A stretch of DNA of 58,224 nt, counting the filler, from Sluysia triapertura (taxonomy: Eukaryota): NCBI GenBank assembly GCA_046118255.1. It is 4 parts of 4 records of this genome, joined end to end, with 100 filler letters (N's around TTAATTAATTAA, not from the genome) between each part and the next. Parts side by side here need not be neighbours in the genome. Positions count along the whole stretch, not along the records: positions 29,601 to 42,899 come from JBJNIA010047679.1; 3 more parts are not named here. One strand, given 5' to 3'. This document shows, piece after piece, positions 21,770 through 58,224 of the stretch. A model generated the notes under the pieces. It saw only the letters and a program-made list of their open reading frames with translations. It had not been told where the DNA came from and made no database searches. Each line of letters begins with the position of its first letter. Within the stretch, counting starts at the first letter, position 1. Made by a program: the position numbers and the translations under genes.

Positions 21770-22795
21770 TCAATCCTGAGTTTCACAATTAAACAACTTT
21801 GTCAATTACATGGTACATTCAAGTCAAACATCATTAGGTACAAAACACAAAAAATTTGATTATCAATCTATTTTTGCTTAAATTACTTCTTACATTAAAA
21901 TAACAATCAGCAATATTATTATACATAAAATAATGAATTTAATTTCACTTTTTAAATTTAAATAATTTTCAAATTTTCACACCAAATTTTCTAATGAAAA
22001 ATGTTTACGGTTCAAACAAACCATTCTACGAACATTCTAGATTCTCCTCTCTCAAAGAAATCATCTCATTATATTTACATCATTTCAACATTCAACATAA
22101 ATTCAACATTCCATAATTAAAAATTAATATAAATTTGACTTTGCTCAACATTAAGTCTTTCCTTGCATGAACTCGGTCAAACCATACCTTCATCGAAAGG
22201 TCTTTTCAAAAAAATAAAAGTATCATTCCGCAATGAAACGTTATTCACAAAAACGTATTTTTTAATTAATTAATCTATTTTTAGACTTAATCTATTCTAT
22301 GTTTAAAAGTTTTATTAAGGTTCCAAAGATATTTAGTAATTTATAAGGCATTCAAGAGGCTCTAGATGTTTTCACCTTCACCCCTCTGATTCCTTTTTCT
22401 ATTTCTTCATGTTAATTATTACCATATTAAACTTATCTTTAATATTTTGATCAATGATTTTATTTCTCAAATATTTTAAAGATTTTAAATACTCTATAAG
22501 GTTACTCGAAGATCTCAAATGCTTATAGAATGTTTAAAGGTTAATAAAGTTTCAGATGATCTGAAAGATTACTAGTTCAAAGGTATTCCAATAACTTTAA
22601 AGGCTTATTATTAATGTATCTCAAACTTTCATAAGGAATCAAACCCTTATATAGGTCTTTGGAATGCCAAGGTATTGCTTAGCTGTTAACGTTATTGTTG
22701 ATGTTTTAATTCTTATGATTCTTATTTCAACGCTACTTATAATACTCAATCCATGATTCGGTATCCTATAGCTTCATGTTTCTCACTCATTTTTC
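21770..22795. repeat. Dispersed repeat family B, copy 2
   Basis: Colinear with 880-2010. Confidence 0.9.
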
Positions 22796-22839
22796 TAACC
22801 TACTATGAAACCATTAATCAAAAGTATGAAAACATTATT

Positions 22840-23545: not shown

Positions 23546-25399
23546 ATAAACAATTTACTACTACTATTAAATTTATGAATTATTACTACTACCACTACTA
23601 CTATCACTACTACTAATGTTTTGTTACCACCTGCCACTACCTGAAATTAAAATTTAATAAAAATATTACAAATTAATAATAATTAATTTTCATGATTATA
23701 AAAATCAATATTGTAAGTTTTGGATGAAATTAATTTTTTGTTTATCTCAATATGAAGTTAAAATTAAGCAGTTTATGTCTTATTTTATATAATTATCACT
23801 AATGCATCAGTATTCAACTAGAATTCAACTATATGCCCATATGGAACCGTTATTAAATAGTTATCTGACATTTATTTAAATTGTTAGAATCATGTTTTAC
23901 TATTATGAGTTGTACTATAGAACGGAATGAAAGTGGTAAATATTTAGTACTACATATGTACAGAATAACATCAAATGGTGAAAAAGTGTAAGTGGATACA
24001 ATATTTTACATGATATTAAAAATCATAATTGTGTAAAATTTTACGAATTTAAAATTTATCAGATACCTTATGTATACTTATTCTTTTACAAGCGTAACAT
24101 TTATCGTGCATGGAGGACAACCCACTCATTACAATATGTCTACAGACGTTTATATGATTTTTAGTGAGGTTGCTATAAAATGTAGTAAAATATTCTACGA
24201 TTTTTGTTTTACTCGTGAACGACGCCGCGATCAATACCCATCCTAGAAAAATTACTGTCAACCACTTAAAGTAAAGGAATATAATTGGTTAATTTTTATT
24301 ATACTTAGTTATATTCTCATACTTCTTGTTCTATTGGTTTTTATAGTAACACTAAACTGGTTCTTATGTAGTCATTTTTCTGTTAATAAACATTTGTTGA
24401 CCTATTTATTTAATTCATTATTTACAGCATTTGTTATTGTTTTAAAGGGCTTTAAGCCCCATTTATGTGTTAAACAAAGTTTTGTTTCATTAATAGGTAA
24501 AATTAAATTAAAACTAGGTTTTGCATTAATAATTAAAAAATTTATAAAAAATTTTATAAAAAATCTATAAAAAATTTTGAACCCCTCCACAAAAGCTATC
24601 CTTTAAAAGTGCTATCGAGAATATTTATACCTTATGTAGACTACTTCATTTATTTGATTGCATCACTACGTCATTCCTATCACCACTATCAATATGAACG
24701 TGGAAGCATCTTGTTTTATGTCACAATTTTGAAGTTAAAGAATTCAATGTGCCGCTACCACTGTCAAATGGCGGAGACTATGAATCCATTATTCATATTA
24801 AATGGAGACAAGGTTAAGAACATTTCGGTACATCAAAGAGATTAATGAAAATTCCAAGTTTTGTAGATCTTGAAACAATGTGTCTTTATATAACAAGTGA
24901 TGGGATTAAATTTCATGGAAATGATAAGGTGATTGTATAAAGCAATGCCGATGCTGCTACTAATTTTAGTAGTTATTAAATATAAAACGAGTAGGAAACA
25001 TGCTAAGTTGCCATTGTTTATTTGCAAATTTTATTTTTATACATTGAAATTATTATTACTATACATAATTATTATTAGTATACATAATAATAATTATTAT
25101 TATTGATATTATTATTATTATTTTTATTATTATTATTTTTATTATTGTTATTATGTTGCACTTTATTACCAAATGATAATTACCAGCTTTAATATATTGT
25201 TGGGCTTCTGTACAGAGCGGTTACGTCTCGAAATACTTCACCATTACAACCAACATGACCAGCACGTAGAAAATCAATAAAGCTTAAAATAATTTCAATT
25301 TTTTAATAAACACTTTAATTATCAAATTTAATGCATAAATCTCATTTTCAAAACATAAACCTTTTCAACAAGCTTTAACAAATTATTCTAACATCCTTT

Positions 25400-26150
25400 A
25401 TTTAATTACAATTTAATTATCAGACGTCTCAAAACAAATTCAGATAACTTCAAAGAATTCATTAGCCGTTTCATTATCTTTTTATTTGTTTCTTCTCATT
25501 TTATTTTATTTCAATTTTATATGTAAGAACAATCGAAGAAAGATAAGAAAGATCATGTATGGAATACTTTCAGAGATTTATGTTTTGATTTTAACATTTT
25601 AATAATAATGGCAATAATTTTACCATTTTTATTATTGTTATTATTATTATTTTATTATTATTTGTACAATTAATGACACTACTGCATTTTATTATTATTT
25701 CTCATTTTATTATTATCAGTATTAAAATCATTAATGTCTGCCATTATGTACATCGTTGATTAATATTATTAATTATAGTTTCAACTGTATCGCCACTGTC
25801 ATCAACTTTAATTATTAATTTAAATAATTATTTTTACTGTCATTGTGTGACAGCTTTTAACATTGGCTTGCACGTTGAATGTTTGTCGTCGAGCACATTT
25901 TGCTGTCTTGTGTCTTATTGGCCAGTCAACTAAAGTATAAAATATTCAATTTGTGTAAATACAAGAATAGAGTTAAGTACAGAACAATTATCAAAAATAA
26001 TTGGAAACATTTCATCAAACACTTCGTTACTTCCAATCAATATTAAAAGACTTAGTTAAATAATATTACGACAGTAAGACGTATAACGTTGCTGATAATT
26101 AATTTGACGATTATTATTATACTATCTAACAAAAGTAATTACTTTTTTGT
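25400..26150 (+). mobile_element. Family A LTR promoter-module fragment (degenerate)
   Basis: agccgtt...tatatgtaagaa...gatttatg...(TTA)n...ctgtca/tgacag...attggc, the same order as 43000-43500. Confidence 0.55.
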
Positions 26151-26268
26151 GAAGCACATATTTCCAATCAACGAAAACTGTTAGTTTTTAAGATTCAAAT
26201 ATAAATTTATATTTGATAATTTTTATCAGAAATAATTTATTGACGATTTGTATATCTAATTGTTAATT

Positions 26269-26896
26269 ATGGATGATAACAATATAATTTCAACGTCAAC
26301 AACATCTTCGATCACTTCAACCTCTACTACAGCTACTTCAAATTATTGTACACAAGTCGTCAAAACACCTGAAAGATTATTTACAAATACGATATTACAG
26401 AGATGTGAAAAAATCTCAGTATTTAAAATGTATCGAATGATAATTCTAACAGTGTTCTTTAGAAATATTATTCATCAGATGATAACATTATCATGGGATG
26501 TAACAATAATCGAATTCATTTGGACAGTTCAAATCTATTGAAAACGGTATTATGATTATTGAAGCAAGCATTGTGTATAAACATCATTCAATTGTTCCTA
26601 ACATTCATGTGTGCGCTGCCGCAATTGAGAAATTATTAGAAGAGTTATTAAAATATTCAGATTGTCATTTGTCTACTAGAGTCATCCCAATCGACTGTTA
26701 TGAAACTCAGTGTAATGATTCGTTAAGTCTGTATGATATTTCAATTAAATCTTCATCTTTTAAAAATTCGTATTATAAATTTACATCGAAAACAGATAAA
26801 TGCGAAATCAACAATGGTCGTCAAAATTCGTATGAAAAATTCGTCATAAATTTGGTATCTGCCTATATGGGACTTCAACCAATGGTCACTGTGTGA
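26269..26896 (+). CDS. Coding fragments of unknown product (S/T-rich N-terminus, short intron about 26420-26462)
   Basis: MDDNNIISTSTTSS...EKIS, GT-AG, KYYSSDDNIIMG...; adjoining ORF 26552-26896 is in another frame. Confidence 0.35.
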
Positions 26897-28235
26897 GGTA
26901 TGGTAAAAGCTGTTGATATGCTCATAAAGTTTCAGTTATTCAAATTTTAGGCAAAGAACAGAGCATTTTTGTGAATTTTATATTTTAAAGACTTTGAAAA
27001 TAATGAAAACTATATCAGTGGACTATATCAATGAACGCTCTACATAAGCAACTTAATTTTTGAATATAGATTGTTGACTTAGGTTTATACTTTTAGGAAA
27101 AAAACTCATATGACAATGGCTAATAAATTTAAAAATATTAGAATAATTGTTGTTATTATTCAATATTTAATGATTATAAAAATTGGTTCACAGGAGTTGC
27201 TTATATAGAGCGTCCACTGTATTTGATAAAGCTGTTCAGATTTCATCTAAAATCGTTGGTCCTCCAAAAAATAAAAATGTTTATGAACACTTATCGATTT
27301 TTAGAATATGCTTTATTCAAAAGTTTTGAATATTGAAGTTTATAATGATGCCATGTAGATTTTGTCTAGGTTTTCAATTGTTGAATGTAAACGAAGCAGA
27401 GAAATCGAAGATATGAAAAGAATACAAAATCCTCTTTTATCTAAAATAGTTGGTTCTTTAATGAATAAAAGTGTTTAAGAACATTTTAGTCAAACAACTA
27501 TCCAAGCGAAATCCAATTGGAAAGCTTTGAATCGTTATCAAGTCACGGATAAAAAACTTGATCATGATTTTAGAAAAGACATTAATTTAAATTACGTACT
27601 AACTGTTGCGAATCAAGTTCGAAATATCTGCGTAATAAGTCTCAGTCCCGTCAAAATGATGCTTAAGAGCTAAAGTCACTGCTTTAAATGCTGTCAAAGT
27701 TTCTTCACCAATTCTCTAATAACGATGAAATGGTCTGAATAAAAAATGTGTTCAAGATGCACTTAAAAGGTGCACCTTAGAATAATTTGTATTAGTAAAA
27801 AAATCATTGAATTTTAAATTATATACATCAAAAACGTCCAATGATCGTGGCTTGCTGTTTTTAAAGATCCTGCTTTTTTCTTGTCACAATTTAGTGCTAC
27901 TTAGTCTTCTCAGACTTTCAGGACTTTACTGTGCGTTGTAAAGTCACCTCATAAGACTCTAAAAACGTTAAACTTCTTAATTCACTTAAATAAATTTTAA
28001 TTCTTTTTACGAAACGCAATTCAATTTAATTTTTTCACGTAACTTTATATTATTTTTTCCTCTTTATGTTACTTTGTTTCTTTATGAAACTTTATTCATC
28101 TTTATATTATTTTAGACGTTTTAAGTTCGTCTATTTTCAATCCCCTTTAATTACTATTAAAATAAATAGAAATAAATCGATAAAAAATACAATATTATTA
28201 AGAATTTTATTAATCAATTTAAATATAATCTTTCA

Positions 28236-28393
28236 AAAATATACAACGAGTTGCCAGAGAATGTCAAATTACTGGAACATGATGAAATATTTAAGAAAAA
28301 GGCAAAATTCTTTCTGTTTCAGAAATATTATAGTGAATGATTTATTTTAAGCGTTTTGAGTACTTACTTTGTAGTAGACGTGAGCGCAATATA
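28236..28393 (+). mobile_element. 5'-truncated LINE ORF2 C-terminal fragment
   Basis: KIYNELPENVKLLEHDEIFKKKAKFFLFQKYYSE*; second copy at 8330-8520 (minus). Confidence 0.7.
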
Positions 28394-29027
28394 AATTAAT
28401 ATCTTATTCTTATTATCATTATCTCAATAATTTTAATAATTATAATTTAAAAATGATTTTTATTATTAGCATTATAATTAGAATTAAAAATATGTTATAT
28501 TTGAGAAAGATGAAGAGGTATCTATCGATCACTTAAAATTATTGGAGAACGGCCTTGAGTTACTGCAAAATGAGATAATAAATGTGAAAGTAAGCTTTGT
28601 CTATATTCTAAGTTCAATGATTTTTCATGATCTTTCTACTCTTAAACTCATTCTCCCTTGTTGTTATTATAATGTATTAGTCACTGTTTCATTTTAATTT
28701 TAGTTTTAAATTGAATATTTTAATTAGCGAAATTTCATTTTTCTAAATACATTATATTAATATTTGTGATGAATAAATACTTTTTTAAATTTCAACTACA
28801 AATAAATGTTCTTTGAAATATTCAACAACAAATTTACAATTTCCTCATATCCAATATCACAGCTAATAATGATAATGAAATTTCATATCAATTTTTTAAC
28901 ACAAGTATAACTTATAATATACATTTTAATATGGATATTAAATGCTAAGAAATGTCAGAATACGGCCTAAAGTTCAATAGAATAATTATAGTGTAATTGA
29001 CTTTAATAAAACCAAAATTGTCTGACA

Positions 29028-33750: not shown

Positions 33751-34040
33751 GTTTGGGATAATAAAAATTTATTCAAAAAATATAAAATTTTGATTTTTAT
33801 TATAATTTATTTACTTACAATAGTGAGTAAGTAAATTATAAATAAAAATTATAATATACCTTAAAAACTTTTTTTGTCTGTATTTACAACTTACTTTGAA
33901 CATTAACCTGAATATATTGGCAAACGTTTTATTTAATAACTGCAGTTCAATGAATCTCGTTTTTGTATTCTGTACGATTATATCCCAGTCAATGATATCC
34001 ATACCTGAAATGATAAAATAATAATAAAATTTAATGTATA

Positions 34041-34865
34041 ATGAATCGATACACGTTCAATGTTTGGATACGCATCACATCAAAATTGCTTCGTACCATC
34101 TTTGTGCGGAATTTGTCAATATTACGATCGTTCTGGTATAGGAGTAATGAGATCCTCATCACGGCATCACTATTTGGTCTGGTTTTGGCAGTATGCCTCG
34201 GTTCTTCTACGAGTTTTTCGCATGCTTTCACGACATTGTGTGGTTTTAGTGAAAAATTAAGATGTTCACATAAAGTACGTAGCGAAATTGAATTTATTGT
34301 CATGAACGCAATGGAAATGCAAGTCACTGCTCCCTATGTTAATGTATTAGCGGCATTTACTAGATGTGGAGAAAAGGATGATTTATTATTTAATATTATG
34401 TATGATCATTCTATTCAAAAAAATGGTTCGTTGATCGATGTTTTAATTAGAGTTATTGTTGGTTCTGATATAGTTGTAAATTTTTTAAAATTGGATAATG
34501 TGTTTTCGTTTATAAATCATTCTATTTCATATATTAATGCTATACTAACAATCGTTATAGTATTAGCATATTTAGTGGAAACGTCTCAAATGTTATTTCG
34601 TGGTACAATAATGGCACGTCATCAATTATCAATTATATTCGTTATTCATCTCATCTGCTTGGTGTTATGTTCCTCTAAAATTGGAAAATGGATACTATGC
34701 GACATTATCTCGCCCATAGATGATGGTTTCTTCGATACGATTATGAAAGACGCAGACAAAACAGAAAATGAACAATTTATGAGTAAAGGTAATAAAGATA
34801 TCTATATTATACCAGATATGTACATTCGTGTTGATTCATTTTTTGATCTTTTTTTAATAAACTAA
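34041..34865 (+). CDS. Orphan ORF, 274 aa, with several hydrophobic segments
   Basis: ATG-initiated long open frame; no domain recognised. Confidence 0.4.
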   Translation: MNRYTFNVWIRITSKLLRTIFVRNLSILRSFWYRSNEILITASLFGLVLAVCLGSSTSFSHAFTTLCGFSEKLRCSHKVRSEIEFIVMNAMEMQVTAPYVNVLAAFTRCGEKDDLLFNIMYDHSIQKNGSLIDVLIRVIVGSDIVVNFLKLDNVFSFINHSISYINAILTIVIVLAYLVETSQMLFRGTIMARHQLSIIFVIHLICLVLCSSKIGKWILCDIISPIDDGFFDTIMKDADKTENEQFMSKGNKDIYIIPDMYIRVDSFFDLFLIN

Positions 34866-37185: not shown

Positions 37186-38337
37186 AATATTAAATACTAA
37201 TATATATTGATTTTAGTTAAGATTTAAAGTTTAACATTGTGGAAATTAGTTGTGAGATTAGGATGTGTGATTAAGATTTTTAATTTGGATTAAATGCCTT
37301 ATCCTTAACGTAAGCACATAGATTCGCAGCTTTTAATTGTGGTGGCCAACCTATTATCTTAATAAATTTTATTAAAAATTTATTTAAGTATATTTCACAT
37401 TCACAAAAAAAATCCATTAAAAACATTTCTTTGAACATAAGTTTTTGCCAACATAGCACTCACCCCCCAAAATCTACAACTCACATTTCTAAATTCACAA
37501 ATAATACAAAAAATAATTAAAATCTTACTCGTTTCAACACTACACAACAACCTTGCAAAATCCCTCACAACCGTTCTTATACCTCAATTCTTTTCACATT
37601 CACCAAAATAAACTCCCATTTTTCAAAACATTTCAAATCTACAATTTACATTCAAAAATTAACATAAAACAATATTAAACTAAATCAACATATTCTACAT
37701 AAAACCATACTCTATAACATTTTAACATTCTCATATTTACCTCCTCTACATTCTCTAAAACAATTCATCCTCTAAAGTCAATTTAAATCTACAACCTTAT
37801 AGCATATAAATCACGGTGACATTCAATACCATCAAATTACATTAAAAATTCATCCAAAATATTTTATGTTTCATCTCTGAAGAATTCAGTTTCAGCCACA
37901 TTCGAAATTAATTATCATACACTTTTAAATCATCTCAAATATTCTAAATGCACGATCTTTTATCATTAAATCCTAACAACCAAACATGACTTTCTTTCAA
38001 AACACCAATGCACATCCATCACTCATTTTAACATTTACACTATTCCAAAGTACTCAAGTCATAACCTTCTACACTCTATTAACATCTTCGGTTAGAAACT
38101 TTATTTCATTCACAACATCAATGTATATTTAAAATCCATGTAAAATAATTATATCATTTTTAAAAACTTAAATCGTAAGTTTCTATATCATAGCAATTAA
38201 CCTCCATACACCATTAAAGATATCTAGTTTTTTGAATAGATTTTAATATGTTCAGAAGGCAAAGACATAAAAGAAATATCATGTATATTTCACAGAACAC
38301 AGAATTTATGCTTTTCGGGATAATAATAATAATAATA

Positions 38338-39789
38338 TGTGGTGGCCAACTCACTACTCTGAATAAAATTCACAAAAAATTCAAACATATTAAAATCTCA
38401 TAAACTTTCAAATATACTTTATTCATTTTAAATCCAAATCAAAACTAACTCATCATATCTAAATCATGCTCTTTAGCAACATATAACAATTCTGTAAAAT
38501 TCATCTCAATCACTTTTATATTTCATTTCGCTTTAGATCCATCAATATAAACTTTCACTTTTCAAAACACTTCAAGTCTACAATCTCATAGCATACAATA
38601 CCATCAATTTACATTAAGTTATTCATCAAAAATATTTTATTCGACATCTCATAACAATCCAACTACAACTACATTCGAAATCAGTTACCAGATATCTTCA
38701 AATCAATTCAGATATTCTAAAGTTATAATCTCTTATCAATTAACTTCTAACATCAAAACATTATTTTATCCAGAACATTAGACTGAAGTAACTAAATTTT
38801 CACTAAACACGTATCAATCTTTTTAAAACACAAATTCACAATTTCGTAAACTTTATCTCTTTTTTGAAGTTTAATATGTCTAGAAATTGAAGAATAAAAG
38901 AGAGATTGTGTATAAGTTCTAAAAGATAAAGAAATTTATGTGTTTTGGTTAATAATAATAATAATAACACTCTTGTTATTATTATTATAACCATTTTTAA
39001 ATTTATCATTTTTATTTTTATTTTTTAAACTATTAAATTGTAAATAAATCAGTAATTACCACCATCCATGTTGACATAGCTAATCACTATGTACAAATGC
39101 ATGTCAACATGCATGGTGGTTTATCTTTCGTTCATTTCATGATGAATGCTACAAATCACATCCATGGCTAGAATTAGCCAATAGAAATGTTAAAAAGTAA
39201 AAGAGAATTTTAGCCAAGAATTTTACAGTATTATACGTATGTCAGCAAACAATTTATCAGTACTATTAAACAACTAATCAAGAAACAACTACAATTTTTC
39301 TATGCACTAAAATAATTTTTCAAAAATTAATTGATCTCAATGTATAATTATAAATGTTAATTTATGAATAATAACCTCACTAATTTATTTTAGCAATAAT
39401 CAATTAGCAGCAAAATTTAGAGTAAAAATTAGAATCTTTTTAAAAAGCATATCAATGATGCTGATCTTATAGTTAAAACTCATAACAACGATGACGAACT
39501 TAAAGTTAAAAGTCATAACAACGATGATGATTATGATAACAAATATAATAACATTAAAGTTAGAGGTTATGACAACCGTGAAGATTACTACAAAGAAGAT
39601 ATGATAACGATGATTATAAATATATTAATCGTAAAGTTGAAAGTTACCATATTAGTGATGTCAATTATGGTTTATCTTAAAAGAAACTTTTATAATTCAA
39701 TTAAATATTATATTAAATAAAATTCATAAAATTTATCAATTAAAATTAAAATTTAATTTAATACTTCATAAATATACAAAATCACAATA
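38338..39789 (+). mobile_element. Nested solo LTR (family A, 1452 bp)
   Basis: Starts TGTGGTGGCCAAC like 37338, ends atcacaata; TAATA on both sides (38333-38337, 39790-39794); the outer copy resumes in register afterwards. Confidence 0.75.
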
Positions 39790-40141
39790 TAATAACATTT
39801 TTGTTATTATTATTATCGTCATTAATTTTTATTATATTTATTGCTAAAATTATTAATTTGGTAACTATCACTACCAGTGGTGACTGCATTAATTTACAAT
39901 GACAGTCAATGTCACCAATGATAGTGGTTCACACATCAATAATCAATCTCTGTTCATTCTTTCATGCATTTATATTGGCCATAGAACCAGAACAAGTATT
40001 ACAGTTGTTTTCATTTTCAATGCCTCTGGTTGGATGACCAATCACAGTATTTCAAAAATTTTCATTATTACAATTTGAAAAGTCTGAGCTAATCGAAAAA
40101 AATAATTTTGAAAAGGATTTATTTATTTAATTACGAAGATA

Positions 40142-40761
40142 GAATTTAACTATTATAAACACGACGATGATTTTGATGAAGATTATGAACTTAACAATAA
40201 CGAAGATGATGATTACAAAGCTAACTATTATAAACATGATGATTACAAAGTTAACAATAACAAAGATGATGATTACGAGGCTAACAATAATAAAGATGAT
40301 GATCGTGAAGCTAACGACAATAAAGACGATGATTACCAAGTTCACAATTATAAAGATGACGATTACGAACTTAACGAATATAAAAATGATGATTATGAAG
40401 CTAACGATAATAATTACGAATTTGATTATTACGAAGATGATTATTACGAAGTTAATGGTAGCAAAGATGATGATTACGAAGCTAACATTATTGCTATCTG
40501 TCCATTCACCACAGATAAATATGGCATATGGAAGTCATTGCTGTTACGCTCACAAAGTCTGTGAAATGAGGTCCACCAAGGAAAACGATTCAAGCTACAC
40601 CTAACATTCTCTTAGAATTACCAATATCTTAAGTAGCATCAAAATTTCAAATCAAAACGCGATAAATAACAATTTGTGTATCCACGAACTCAAAGTAATT
40701 ATTTATTATACTTTTTGGGATGATATTAATTTTTGTGATTTTTATTTAGATGATGAAATAG
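40142..40761 (+). pseudogene. LTR-borne spliced gene remnant: Asp/Tyr-rich 10-aa repeats plus Cys-containing domain
   Basis: DYELNNNEDDDYKANYYKHDDYKVNNNKDDDYEAN...NIIAICPFTTDKYG, frameshift, GSHCCYAHKVCEMRSTKENDSSYT*HSLRI...HELK, intron 40695-40749, MMK*. Confidence 0.7.
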
Positions 40762-41208
40762 TTGGATCAGGAGCTGGCACAACCAGAATTAAAATAATAA
40801 ACGTTCAATGTAATTTTAATAAAATTTTATGTGGTTGTAGTTCATTTATAAATTGTTTTTTATTTCAAAATTCACAATATAACAAAGATTGAAGACATAA
40901 GAACTTAATTAAAATTTCAGTTTCTTTTTTTCAAATCTATTTAAAATTTTTTAAAAATTCAATCATAACTCAAAGTTTAAATAATTATATTAAACCACAA
41001 CAAAAATGTTGTCAGGAGTTCAAAATAACCCTACTACCACAACATTAAGAAAGAAAAGATAAGAACTGGAGGCTTATGTTGATATTTAATTTTGATGTTA
41101 TCTGTTTCTTAGATTTAGATACTTATTAGCTTTCCTCAATTAAGATTTTATTATAATTTGGAAAATAATCAATATTAAAAATTATCCGTATCAATTCAAA
41201 TTTATTTT

Positions 41209-42532: not shown

Positions 42533-42899
42533 TATATCACCTTATAAAGGGATATACAAAATCTAACTTAAATTTAATTTTAATTTTTCATCGACACCTT
42601 AATAACAGGGTCGAGTAATTTTATTTTTTAAATTGACAAATAATCAACTTAGGTTGAATTAGTAAAATCATTATCTTTATTATAATTTCGTTTTTTGTAT
42701 AGTTTAGAACATAATTGTAATTATTTAATAAAAGCTTTAGAGTTTTAAGGAATTTTGTTTTTTGAGTTAAATTAAGTTAGATAATTAAGCGACAACTAAA
42801 TAAAATAATAAAATCTTTTTTGTATAACAACACCTTAATAAAAGGGTTGTGTAAATATTAAAATAATTCTTTTCATACAACATCTCATTAAGAGAGTTG
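42533..42899 (+). other. Array of four bulged-A stem-loops
   Basis: tatatc-A-cctt-ata-aagg-gatata; tcgac-A-cct-taataac-agg-gtcga; acaac-A-cctt-aataa-aagg-gttgt; caac-A-tctc-attaa-gaga-gttg. Confidence 0.75.
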
Positions 42900-42999
42900 N
42901 NNNNNNNNNNNNNNNNNNNNNNNNNNNNNNNNNNNNNNNNNNNTTAATTAATTAANNNNNNNNNNNNNNNNNNNNNNNNNNNNNNNNNNNNNNNNNNNN
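42900..42999. other. Artificial contig linker (44N-TTAATTAATTAA-44N)
   Basis: Identical to the other two linkers. Confidence 0.97.
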
Positions 43000-43620
43000 A
43001 ACCACAAATAACATTGTATATACTCATAGCCGTTGCTACTTCACAGCCTTCTATTCACCTTACGTATCTTTTATTCCATTTTATTATTTGTATATGTAAG
43101 AAATTAGTAAGGATACAAAGAACAGATTGTGTTATTAAGAATCAAAGACTTTTATGCATGTTATTAGTTTTCAAATTATTATAATTCTTTTATTATTATT
43201 ATTATTACTAATCTTATTATTATTATAATTATTATTATCATTTATGTTATTATCAAATTAATTATTTGTACTATTAATTTTTGATAATTTAGTCTCTACC
43301 GCCATCAGCACATATAAAATCATTTTAAAATGTCAATAATACGTCAGTGCTGATGACGGCTTACCAACAGTAAAACATAATTTTATCAGCTGGCCAGAAA
43401 AATTTAATTCAATATCACCCAATCAGAGTGAATTCAGTTCTTATTCACTCAAAATACTCTGATTGGGTAGGCAGCATTAGAGTACAAATTTTCATAATTA
43501 TATTATTGGAGCTAAAAATAGAATACACAAAAAAATTGTAGCAACTTGTGATAATAGTTAGCGGTTAAAAATATTTGCCAGACACATTTAGTAATAATTC
43601 CTAACATTTGGAAAATTTTC
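43000..43620 (+). mobile_element. Family A LTR promoter-module fragment
   Basis: tgctacttc, tatatgtaagaa, tttatgc, (TTA)n, inverted repeat 43299-43311/43347-43359, tggcc, CCAAT inverted repeat 43417-43429/43456-43468, and aaattttcataatta as near 40056. Confidence 0.65.
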
Positions 43621-43697
43621 AACAATTGATGATGGATTTAGTTATTTTGCGTAAAGATGATGTATCTGATCTAATACAATTATGTATTTGAGAAACA

Positions 43698-45164
43698 ATG
43701 AAGAGTGAATTTATGTTGTGTATCAACGGCATGATCAATACAATGTTGCTAAACGATTGTGAAATAGTGATCAAACAATTCGAAGTGTATGAAGACCTCA
43801 CATTCAATGTATTATCTCTAGACAGACATGATATAACGACCAAACATTGTAGTATAATTAAAAAGGACGTTTTTAATACAATAATATTGATGATTAGGAA
43901 ATTTTGCGCGCGCAATGGTCCTATATCTGGTATTATATTATTAAAAATTCAAAAAATAATAATGAAACAACTTAATGAAGATAAAATTAGTCTTTTTAGT
44001 TTAAATTCATCAAATAAATACAAAATTAGTCCTTTTAGCTTATTACTATTAGATGAAAACCAAATCACGACAAGACAACCGGATGTACATAATTATGGAT
44101 TAATGGCGAAACAATTTTTTACGTGTAAAGATTATGTTCTTGTAGTAGTATTATTTAGAAGTTGCAAAGTAATGATTAAGGTCTTCGATGTACATAGTGT
44201 TGGTATAACGGTTAGACGATCTAGGATATATGAAGATGATTTATTCCATACAATATTAGTGTACAATTTCGGCAGAGTAAAAATACTATCTAATGCAAGT
44301 GAAGGAGAAAATATTCTAAAGTTTACCGATAATGTTAAGTGTCTCGATATAACCGTATCGTCCATCGCAGTGGTCCACAGTCATAAAAAATCCGGGATTA
44401 GTCTAAGTAATTTTGTTATATTAAACTTACATTACTATATCTATTATATTGTTTATGTATTTATTAGTCATGATACTTCCATCAATCAAGAAGTCCATGG
44501 AATCGCGATCCGTGGAGAAAAGGTGTCTGCAGAAAAATCTAAAATTTTTAGTTTATTTACAAACAAATTTACAGTTACCAAACTAATCTTCAACATAAAC
44601 ATTTTGTTTAGTTTATTAATAAATAATTATAGGTCTTATTTTCACACAATTAAAGTTATTTGCGAAATAAATAAAAATGTTCATATTCAATCTATAGTTT
44701 ATTATAAATCATTTATTAAAGGAATAAGTAATTTGATAAAGTCCTCAATCGATATCTGTAACTTCATCTTTCGTAGCCATCACACAGTTTCCAACATAAA
44801 GTTACGTTTTAATTTAATATTCTCCTATATGACTATTGTAAAAATCACGAATACTCTGCCTTCTTTCAATTCAATAAATGTACTTATACAAATTATTGCC
44901 GATATACTTAATAATAGATTTAGACAGTTAATATTCTATGGGGTTAAGTCTAAGGCCATCTTTGGCAAATTATCAAACTATATTAAAAACCACTCGACAC
45001 TGTATCCACACTACATATACCCCATAATCTTTTTGACTCCATCTTCTATTTTTAGATTCGATTTTGTTTTTAATAAAATTCTGATTAGATATCTTACTTT
45101 CACTTTCACTTATTGTATATTTTTGCAAGTTTTCTCTGAAATGATTATTTCTTTAATAGTTTAG
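43698..45164 (+). CDS. Orphan ORF, 488 aa (extends in frame to ATG 43632 across one TGA)
   Basis: Longest ORF in the window; opposite strand in the same register is full of stops; no domain recognised. Confidence 0.5.
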   Translation: MKSEFMLCINGMINTMLLNDCEIVIKQFEVYEDLTFNVLSLDRHDITTKHCSIIKKDVFNTIILMIRKFCARNGPISGIILLKIQKIIMKQLNEDKISLFSLNSSNKYKISPFSLLLLDENQITTRQPDVHNYGLMAKQFFTCKDYVLVVVLFRSCKVMIKVFDVHSVGITVRRSRIYEDDLFHTILVYNFGRVKILSNASEGENILKFTDNVKCLDITVSSIAVVHSHKKSGISLSNFVILNLHYYIYYIVYVFISHDTSINQEVHGIAIRGEKVSAEKSKIFSLFTNKFTVTKLIFNINILFSLLINNYRSYFHTIKVICEINKNVHIQSIVYYKSFIKGISNLIKSSIDICNFIFRSHHTVSNIKLRFNLIFSYMTIVKITNTLPSFNSINVLIQIIADILNNRFRQLIFYGVKSKAIFGKLSNYIKNHSTLYPHYIYPIIFLTPSSIFRFDFVFNKILIRYLTFTFTYCIFLQVFSEMIISLIV

Positions 45165-56994: not shown

Positions 56995-57097
56995 TAAAAT
57001 AATCATGAATAGACAATTTTAATGATAAAGCTCGTTATTATTAAACACATTTTCAGTTTCATTGATGTGTTGGACAACAAATTGAATTTCATCTAAT

Positions 57098-58224
57098 TTA
57101 CAAAGACTTCGTCCCAGAGGCAGTAGAATTTTTGGGGTGGATTGAGTTTTTTGAGTCATTGCTATTTGAAAATGTTCTTTGGACGAGTGTTAAGGGCTTA
57201 TTATTATAAGATTTATGAAAGGAATTAAATGGTTTGGATGATTTAACGTTGAGACTGGAACTAACTGCGTAGTCCATGTTTTTATACATAAAGGTCTTAC
57301 GTATGACAATTACGTGGTTTTTGATGAAGGGAGGTTCATTCAATTGACGTAGATTTGAAAATATGGGTTGTTTACGTATAAGTCGTTTTAAAGAGATTAT
57401 GCAATTATTCTTTTGGCTTATATCATAAAAACTGGCTTTAATACAAAAAACGATGTTTACTTTAACTGTTTTAAATTCTAGTCCTATAACGTTTAGGATC
57501 TGTTCTTCCATAAATTCACTATCTTTAAATACACAATAAAAATGAGAGAAAATACGGTACTCAATATTAAGTTTTATTAATACAAAAAGTTCCTGTAATA
57601 TTGTTATGTGTTTGCCGGAATTTGATAATGATTGCGTCCCTGTTCCGTTCACGTATCCAACTTCGTGATTATACAACTTGGTGACCCTGTGATATATAAA
57701 AATAATATAAATATCTTTAAGTAAGTGTTTAATAGAAATGAAAATTAGTAGTTTACCTTTAGAGAATAAAGTCAAAGCTGTGCATTCGGATACGAATCTG
57801 ACAGAGTATTGTGGAGCCGCAACAGCATCCCATGTACACGAATCATGCATAGTAAGGCCATATATTATGTATTCACGTTCAGCGCGGTTCACGTAGTTTA
57901 CATTCTGCCTGGCGTTATTTACATCATTCCCGCTACTTTTATTGATAATATTTCGCTTCGCACCATAGACGTTCCTTAGACTAAATTCCAGACTAATCAC
58001 ATCGGTTGCGTGCTTCCTGGTGCTATTTACAGTGTTTACACTAATTTCGTTTATTGTACATCGCTTCACGCTATCGGCATCACATATACTAAATTCCAGA
58101 CTAATTACGTCGGTTGCGAGCTTCCTGGTGCTATTTACAGTGTTTACACTAATTTCGTTTATTGTACATCGCTTCACGGTATCGGTATTACATATACTAA
58201 ATTCCAGACTAATTACATCGGTTG
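57098..58224 (-). CDS. Orphan protein with 36-aa tandem repeats; start lies beyond the window
   Basis: Frame is open from the window edge; repeat KRCTINEISVNTVNSTRKxATDVISLEFSICxxDxV precedes a unique C-terminal region. Confidence 0.55.
   Translation of the reverse strand, partial: TDVISLEFSICNTDTVKRCTINEISVNTVNSTRKLATDVISLEFSICDADSVKRCTINEISVNTVNSTRKHATDVISLEFSLRNVYGAKRNIINKSSGNDVNNARQNVNYVNRAEREYIIYGLTMHDSCTWDAVAAPQYSVRFVSECTALTLFSKGKLLIFISIKHLLKDIYIIFIYHRVTKLYNHEVGYVNGTGTQSLSNSGKHITILQELFVLIKLNIEYRIFSHFYCVFKDSEFMEEQILNVIGLEFKTVKVNIVFCIKASFYDISQKNNCIISLKRLIRKQPIFSNLRQLNEPPFIKNHVIVIRKTFMYKNMDYAVSSSLNVKSSKPFNSFHKSYNNKPLTLVQRTFSNSNDSKNSIHPKNSTASGTKSL
57981..58224. repeat. 108-bp tandem repeat, at least 2.3 copies
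   Basis: ctaaattccagactaat recurs at 57981, 58089 and 58197. Confidence 0.95.

Follow-up and report, generated by a model that had tools for sequence, protein, structure and literature searches.

A dispersed module that stands in front of genes in Sluysia triapertura (assembly GCA_046118255.1) carries, at a fixed place, a pair of GC-rich, covarying hairpins that are homologous between copies. The letters of the hairpins differ from copy to copy while the pairing is kept, which means that something preserves the fold. We consider it possible, at a probability of about 0.45, that an RNA element folded into two hairpins is maintained by selection here, probably on the strand opposite the ORFs. 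The window (the whole stretch of DNA analysed) comprises 58,224 nt in four joined parts, filler included; its GC content is 24.8%, it is animal-like (pieces of innexin, RING, ZZ, SWIM and FGGY via Pfam), and its introns, by eye, measure about 40 bp. The literature searched, in which subscription papers are thinly covered, holds analogues and no account of this module.

The copies are A (39058-39221), B (39867-40042), C (43299-43468), D (6021-5854, minus strand) and E (about 25290-25945). Every module starts with a G-poor tract and continues with (TTA)n and a pair of GC-rich hairpins, each 52-73 bp long; an intron-less ORF comes next, which is of the Asp/Tyr-repeat, decayed SKI-like or orphan type. 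The first hairpin (IR1) spans 61-73 bp and the second (IR2) 52-69 bp, with 97-114 bp from centre to centre; the arm spacing in the hairpins of A-D is 23-35 bp, and the loops are given as 23-49 nt. The arms have 50-52% GC, compared with 21-24% in the 5' flank and the loop. The inverted repeats are listed below, with a strand for D only:

39058-39077/39101-39120: A IR1, arms 19/20, z -6.4 and -6.1 on the two strands
39160-39175/39206-39221: A, weak candidate for IR2, 13/16 paired
39867-39884/39911-39928: B IR1, arms 15/18
39974-39991/40025-40042: B IR2, arms 15/18, outer ATTGG/CCAAT
43299-43311/43347-43359: C IR1, 12/13, z -2.9 on the module strand and -5.5 on the opposite one
43417-43429/43456-43468: C IR2, arms 13/13, inner CCAAT/ATTGG
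5949-5967/6003-6021, module on the minus strand: D IR1, arms 18/19
5854-5874/5902-5922, module on the minus strand: D IR2, 15/21, outer ATTGG/CCAAT

A scan weighted by base composition found four inverted repeats of at least 25 bits (TTA repeats excluded), where 20 block shuffles gave 0.05 on average; the four lie inside modules without exception; at 22 bits or more there were six against 0.2, five of them inside modules. The observation of the first-pass annotation is thus confirmed, and the well-defined arms sit where it had put them; B IR1 (39867-39928) and D IR2 (5854-5922) are near, and not identical to, the ranges that it gave (39864-39925 and 5851-5923). It had also described a second repeat containing ATTGG/CCAAT, which is present in B, C and D and fails in A, where a 6-bp palindrome that lacks ATTGG occupies 39165-39181; the weak IR2 candidate of A has no significant alignment to any other IR2. 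The CCAAT box of C occupies another column of the stem, further inward than in B and D, where it is at the outer end.

The sample for covariation is three to four copies, which were picked for having repeats and from whose own sequences the structure was drawn; in it, IR1 of A, B and C aligns gap-free in the arms, 87% of cells are paired, and 7 of the 18 pairs are changed on both sides. None of 500 shuffles reached this count, slid registers give 0-2, and RNAalifold recovers the same helix. For IR2 of B, C and D, aligned on the right arm, 4 of 18 columns are compensated; C IR2 aligns with the inner stem of B IR2, and the B-D alignment has p 0.003. Between copies the hairpins are homologous and their changes are compensatory, as the claim of structure kept without sequence implied; it is likewise correct that arms match better within a copy (11-13 of the 14 columns of IR1) than between copies (5-10 of 14). 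Covariation this dense in short repeats normally marks a functional fold. The neutral decay of a perfect repeat is rejected: in simulation it keeps both stems at P <= 3e-4 in all six copy pairs of A-D, the register of D being set by hand. Trained on A, B and C, a model of IR1 picks up D IR1 on the module strand (E 0.03) and also matches C IR2 (E 0.029), with no further new site below E 0.3; the likeness of C IR2 to IR1 hints at a tandem origin of the two hairpins.

As both arms and loops are homologous across copies, the modules are not independent insertions, and an explanation by separate MITEs fails. That the repeats are such MITEs, or else termini of rolling-circle (Helentron/DINE-1) elements, appears very unlikely to us. 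PMC4067079 describes DINE-1/HINE non-autonomous Helentrons as non-coding repeats with a short inverted repeat beside a microsatellite, an anatomy that the modules recall; D carries a partial third arm copy at 5796, and host-like gene pieces adjoin the modules. However, this third copy is not above background for A, B and C, so that three of the four copies are without a matching 3' subterminal repeat, and the arm spacing of 23-35 bp exceeds the 3-22 bp of such elements. The short terminal palindrome is not seen, and the ORFs scanned have no Pfam match to Rep/helicase.

The surroundings of the hairpins, including copy E, are as follows:

38340-38870, plus: G-poor tract upstream of A (G 27, C 109, skew -0.60, p 7e-13)
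38870-38946, plus: upstream motif of A, rich in purines, with homologues in C and E
38950-38990, plus: (TTA)n/(TAA)n tract of A, from the sequence
39433-39720, plus: decayed Asp/Tyr-repeat ORF after A
40112-40604, plus: Asp/Tyr-repeat ORF after B, frameshifted, with a Cys-bearing tail and a paralogue at about 60-390
43086-43253, plus: upstream motif and (TTA)n tract of C
43692-45164, plus: orphan ORF after C, 490 codons, stop-free
6060-6520, minus: (TTA)n tract and G-poor upstream tract of D (skew -0.41, p 0.002)
5190-5720, minus: SKI-like gene after D, intron-less and decayed; a premature in-frame TGA lies close to its start, and its second half has decayed
about 25290-25945, plus: copy E, with G-poor tract, upstream motif, (TTA)n and decayed hairpins (by homology alignment and skew)

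The upstream motif aligns globally better than shuffles in the pairs A-C, A-E and C-E (p <= 0.0013), and for D only at p 0.02-0.41. Copy E is homologous to the other copies in this motif and in both repeats; most of its pairing is lost and its fold is not significant (z -1.7), and two looser candidates near 25160 and 20300 have no significant fold either (z -1.7 to +1.1, E included). In A, C, D and E the G-poor upstream tract has a skew between -0.41 and -0.61 (p <= 0.008), compared with about 0 downstream; the place looks promoter-like, as had been proposed, with GC skew switching at the module in four of four copies tested and an ATG 131 bp (D) or 161 bp (C) past IR2. Beyond the module the strand opposite the ORFs is G-rich, again in four of four copies tested.

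The SKI-like gene after D has a Pfam match to Ski_Sno_DHD (E 5e-13) and is 45% identical (E 7e-20) to P0001, an intact relative of 224 aa with both SKI domains; P0002, P0003 and P0013 are repetitive proteins, and their matches were taken as spurious. For the ORF after C a SKI-like nature was considered and rejected, with no detectable SKI likeness; it has no match in Pfam, in the protein search or in viral contigs, and its Atlas rows are unnamed and weak. The sense strand of the ORF at 40112-40604 was judged by eye from synonymous-looking changes. The ORFs after C and after D each have an upstream ATG whose frame is closed after some 20 codons by one TGA (43629-43691, plus; 5720-5649, minus), which may reflect either decay or readthrough. 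Long intron-less ORFs with no Pfam match at threshold were further noted at 6666-7975 (minus), 34035-34865 (plus), 26260-26896 (plus) and 57096-58222 (minus); two of the four are closely packed head to tail, and the last contains a 108-bp tandem repeat.

Compensation of this kind may also arise at the DNA level. Here the paired CCAAT and TGACA sites of a promoter would be selected, and the pairing would be a by-product of copying from arm to arm, by template switching or conversion; a cruciform may form and need not function. We hold this to be doubtful. The 985 bp of modules contain 10 of the 105 window matches to CCAAT and 10 of the 113 to TGACA (p ~1e-5, uncorrected for GC and arm doubling), in D and C the distance to the ATG downstream is 131-161 bp, and the mismatches have a spectrum close to neutral. 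A and C differ in five adjacent pairs, and the arms are no better conserved between copies (8-13 of 18) than the 5' flank (8-10 of 13-15); both observations fit block copying. According to PMC8794818, template switching can create and maintain stems and gives multi-base compensations, and PMC1803023 reports that long nematode inverted repeats keep structure over sequence.

The compensated changes fall outside the TGACA and CCAAT cores. Against the copying of selected sites stand the position of CCAAT, which is not homologous between C and B/D, and the constant span and spacing of the two hairpins, which arm homogenisation alone leaves unexplained. A loop inversion, which would be the clearest mark of template switching, showed up between A and B (p 0.008, one of 12 tests) and was rejected: under a strict test, with the inner stem excluded, the sign is gone (8/18 in either orientation). 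The hairpins of PMC8794818 resemble ours in their compensatory, clustered stem changes; however, they are described for genes of rRNA and miRNA, and it is chiefly short loops that are inverted there, whereas the loops here have 23-49 nt and loop inversion is unsupported. The actively maintained inverted repeats of Caenorhabditis are similar in that the inverted structure outlasts the sequence, but they are long and span gene pairs (PMC1803023); ours have arms of 13-21 bp in a dispersed module.

As to the factor sites, the first-pass annotation offered paired TALE-homeodomain and NF-Y sites as an alternative. In bioRxiv 10.64898/2026.02.16.706105, DECA lies 10-11 bp from CCAAT in the DECA-CCAAT (TALE/NF-Y) composite, and the likeness consists in cores of TGACA and CCAAT close to what is probably a promoter. 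The canonical composite is not supported for the modules: neither of the two window matches to TGATTGAC falls in them, so that the DECA motif is absent, and the repeats are about 100 bp apart rather than 10-11 bp.

Returning to a selected RNA fold, the evidence leans to the strand opposite the ORFs. This strand folds lower in all eight hairpins, and in six of eight by z-score (sign test p 0.14, not significant); the covariation term of the consensus is -2.21 on it and -1.21 on the other. Mismatches of the G.U type number 8 on the opposite strand vs 4 (p 0.19, not significant): 8 of the 22 stem mismatches are wobble pairs there, and 10 of the 22 are of the transversion type, which wobbles on neither strand. 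As the strand tests are not significant, they do not separate an RNA structure from a cruciform or from arm homogenisation.

In this reading, a dispersed and lineage-specific family of repeats, placed before unrelated intron-less genes, would have the module as its regulatory core, and the two inverted repeats would persist as their arms must pair within one strand. The folded molecule would be RNA, in all likelihood transcribed by Pol II from the strand opposite the ORFs, with a pair of stem-loops, each of 52-73 nt, at a distance of about 100-115 nt; along the transcript, hairpin 2 would come first, followed by hairpin 1, (AAU)n and then a G-rich tract. Such a layout would be expected of U3 in an LTR-like element that is non-autonomous, or of an antisense transcript from a promoter that works both ways. 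It is the shape of the hairpins, and no fixed sequence, that would act, possibly as handles for a double-strand-RNA-binding protein or for the replication of the element; the compensatory changes retained by selection may come from copying between the arms. The module fits no Rfam family and precedes unrelated genes, a SKI-like regulator among them. Many copies from one genome would separate selection for RNA structure from DNA-level arm copying, and the module might show how new promoters or microRNAs originate in a repeat family.

In compact miRNA clusters, hairpins of 52-73 nt at a period of 97-114 nt would fit. The pair might be read as a microRNA-like cassette whose seeds diverge quickly, comparable to the U3 dumbbell of foamy viruses but transcribed by Pol II; we find this quite unlikely. 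Besides the span and the period, the right arms of IR2 are better conserved than the left ones (10-12 vs 7-9 of 18), and C IR2 resembles IR1. On the other hand, the basal Drosha stem is above shuffled flanks in none of 16 hairpin-strand tests (lowest p 0.11), no seed common to the copies is seen by eye, and runs of T4 break the cassette in four of four copies on the module strand and in two of four on the other. The best Rfam match, mir-31, reaches 22 bits (E 2.3), well short of its gathering score of 51; the whole window gave four Rfam matches at E <= 5, none at threshold. Inspection by eye as well as Rfam spoke against a hammerhead, a box C/D or a SECIS element, and these readings were dropped; a sigma-70 scan, not applicable to an animal, was at chance level.

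The foamy-virus dumbbell (PMC6950176) is a pri-miRNA cassette in the LTR U3, and its units are Pol III products of 111-128 nt with proven miRNAs; here the cassette has 164-176 nt and internal T4 runs, the LTR is only a resemblance, and the miRNAs are hypothetical. A bolder version, equally improbable, is a gene-carrying, dispersed invertebrate element with a two-hairpin small-RNA cassette that is transcribed opposite its cargo and has its arms rewritten in concert. If true, each copy would yield different small RNAs, and the element would be a Pol II, non-viral counterpart of the foamy dumbbell and a source of new microRNAs.

The modules had been described as lying in LTR copies; this is not supported for all copies, C, D and E in particular, and the term "LTR" stands for a resemblance. 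The LTR-like unit is the following:

38338-41044, no strand: TG..CA-bounded, LTR-like repeat unit with modules A and B

Its start, TGTGGTGGCC, recurs at 37338, and its end, CCACAACA, is common to 805-859 (56.8 bits vs background up to 25.7); TG..CA ends are thus common only around A/B and at 859. There is no exact target duplication (flanks TAATA or TTAAT vs TTAAG), and the candidate ends of C and D are not above background. An element at 4446-6520 around D, with a 4-bp duplication, was rejected since its ends were chosen post hoc. No TGG-type primer-binding site was seen by eye next to the ends, and the 29-letter end pattern has no match in metagenome contigs. Concerning gag/pol, none of the 113 ORFs of 58-119 aa and none of the 11 scanned among the 15 longer ORFs has a retroelement Pfam match; decayed frames were covered by motif search.

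Further repeats were noted in the window. At 37338-38337 there is a second G-poor block of 1 kb, with the same start as 38338 and no hairpin module. A pair of 1.1-kb G-poor repeats (860-2041 and 21770-22827) is 73% identical and apparently non-coding; the former abuts the TG..CA end at 859 and has a purine-rich run on the minus strand. An inverted pair of 165 bp (8335-8499 and 28233-28397) is 84% identical. Three related short hairpins with loops of 7-9 nt lie at 42588-42900, just before the gap upstream of C. The gaps at about 13540, 29546 and 42945 carry an artificial 12-base spacer with stops in all frames between runs of N.
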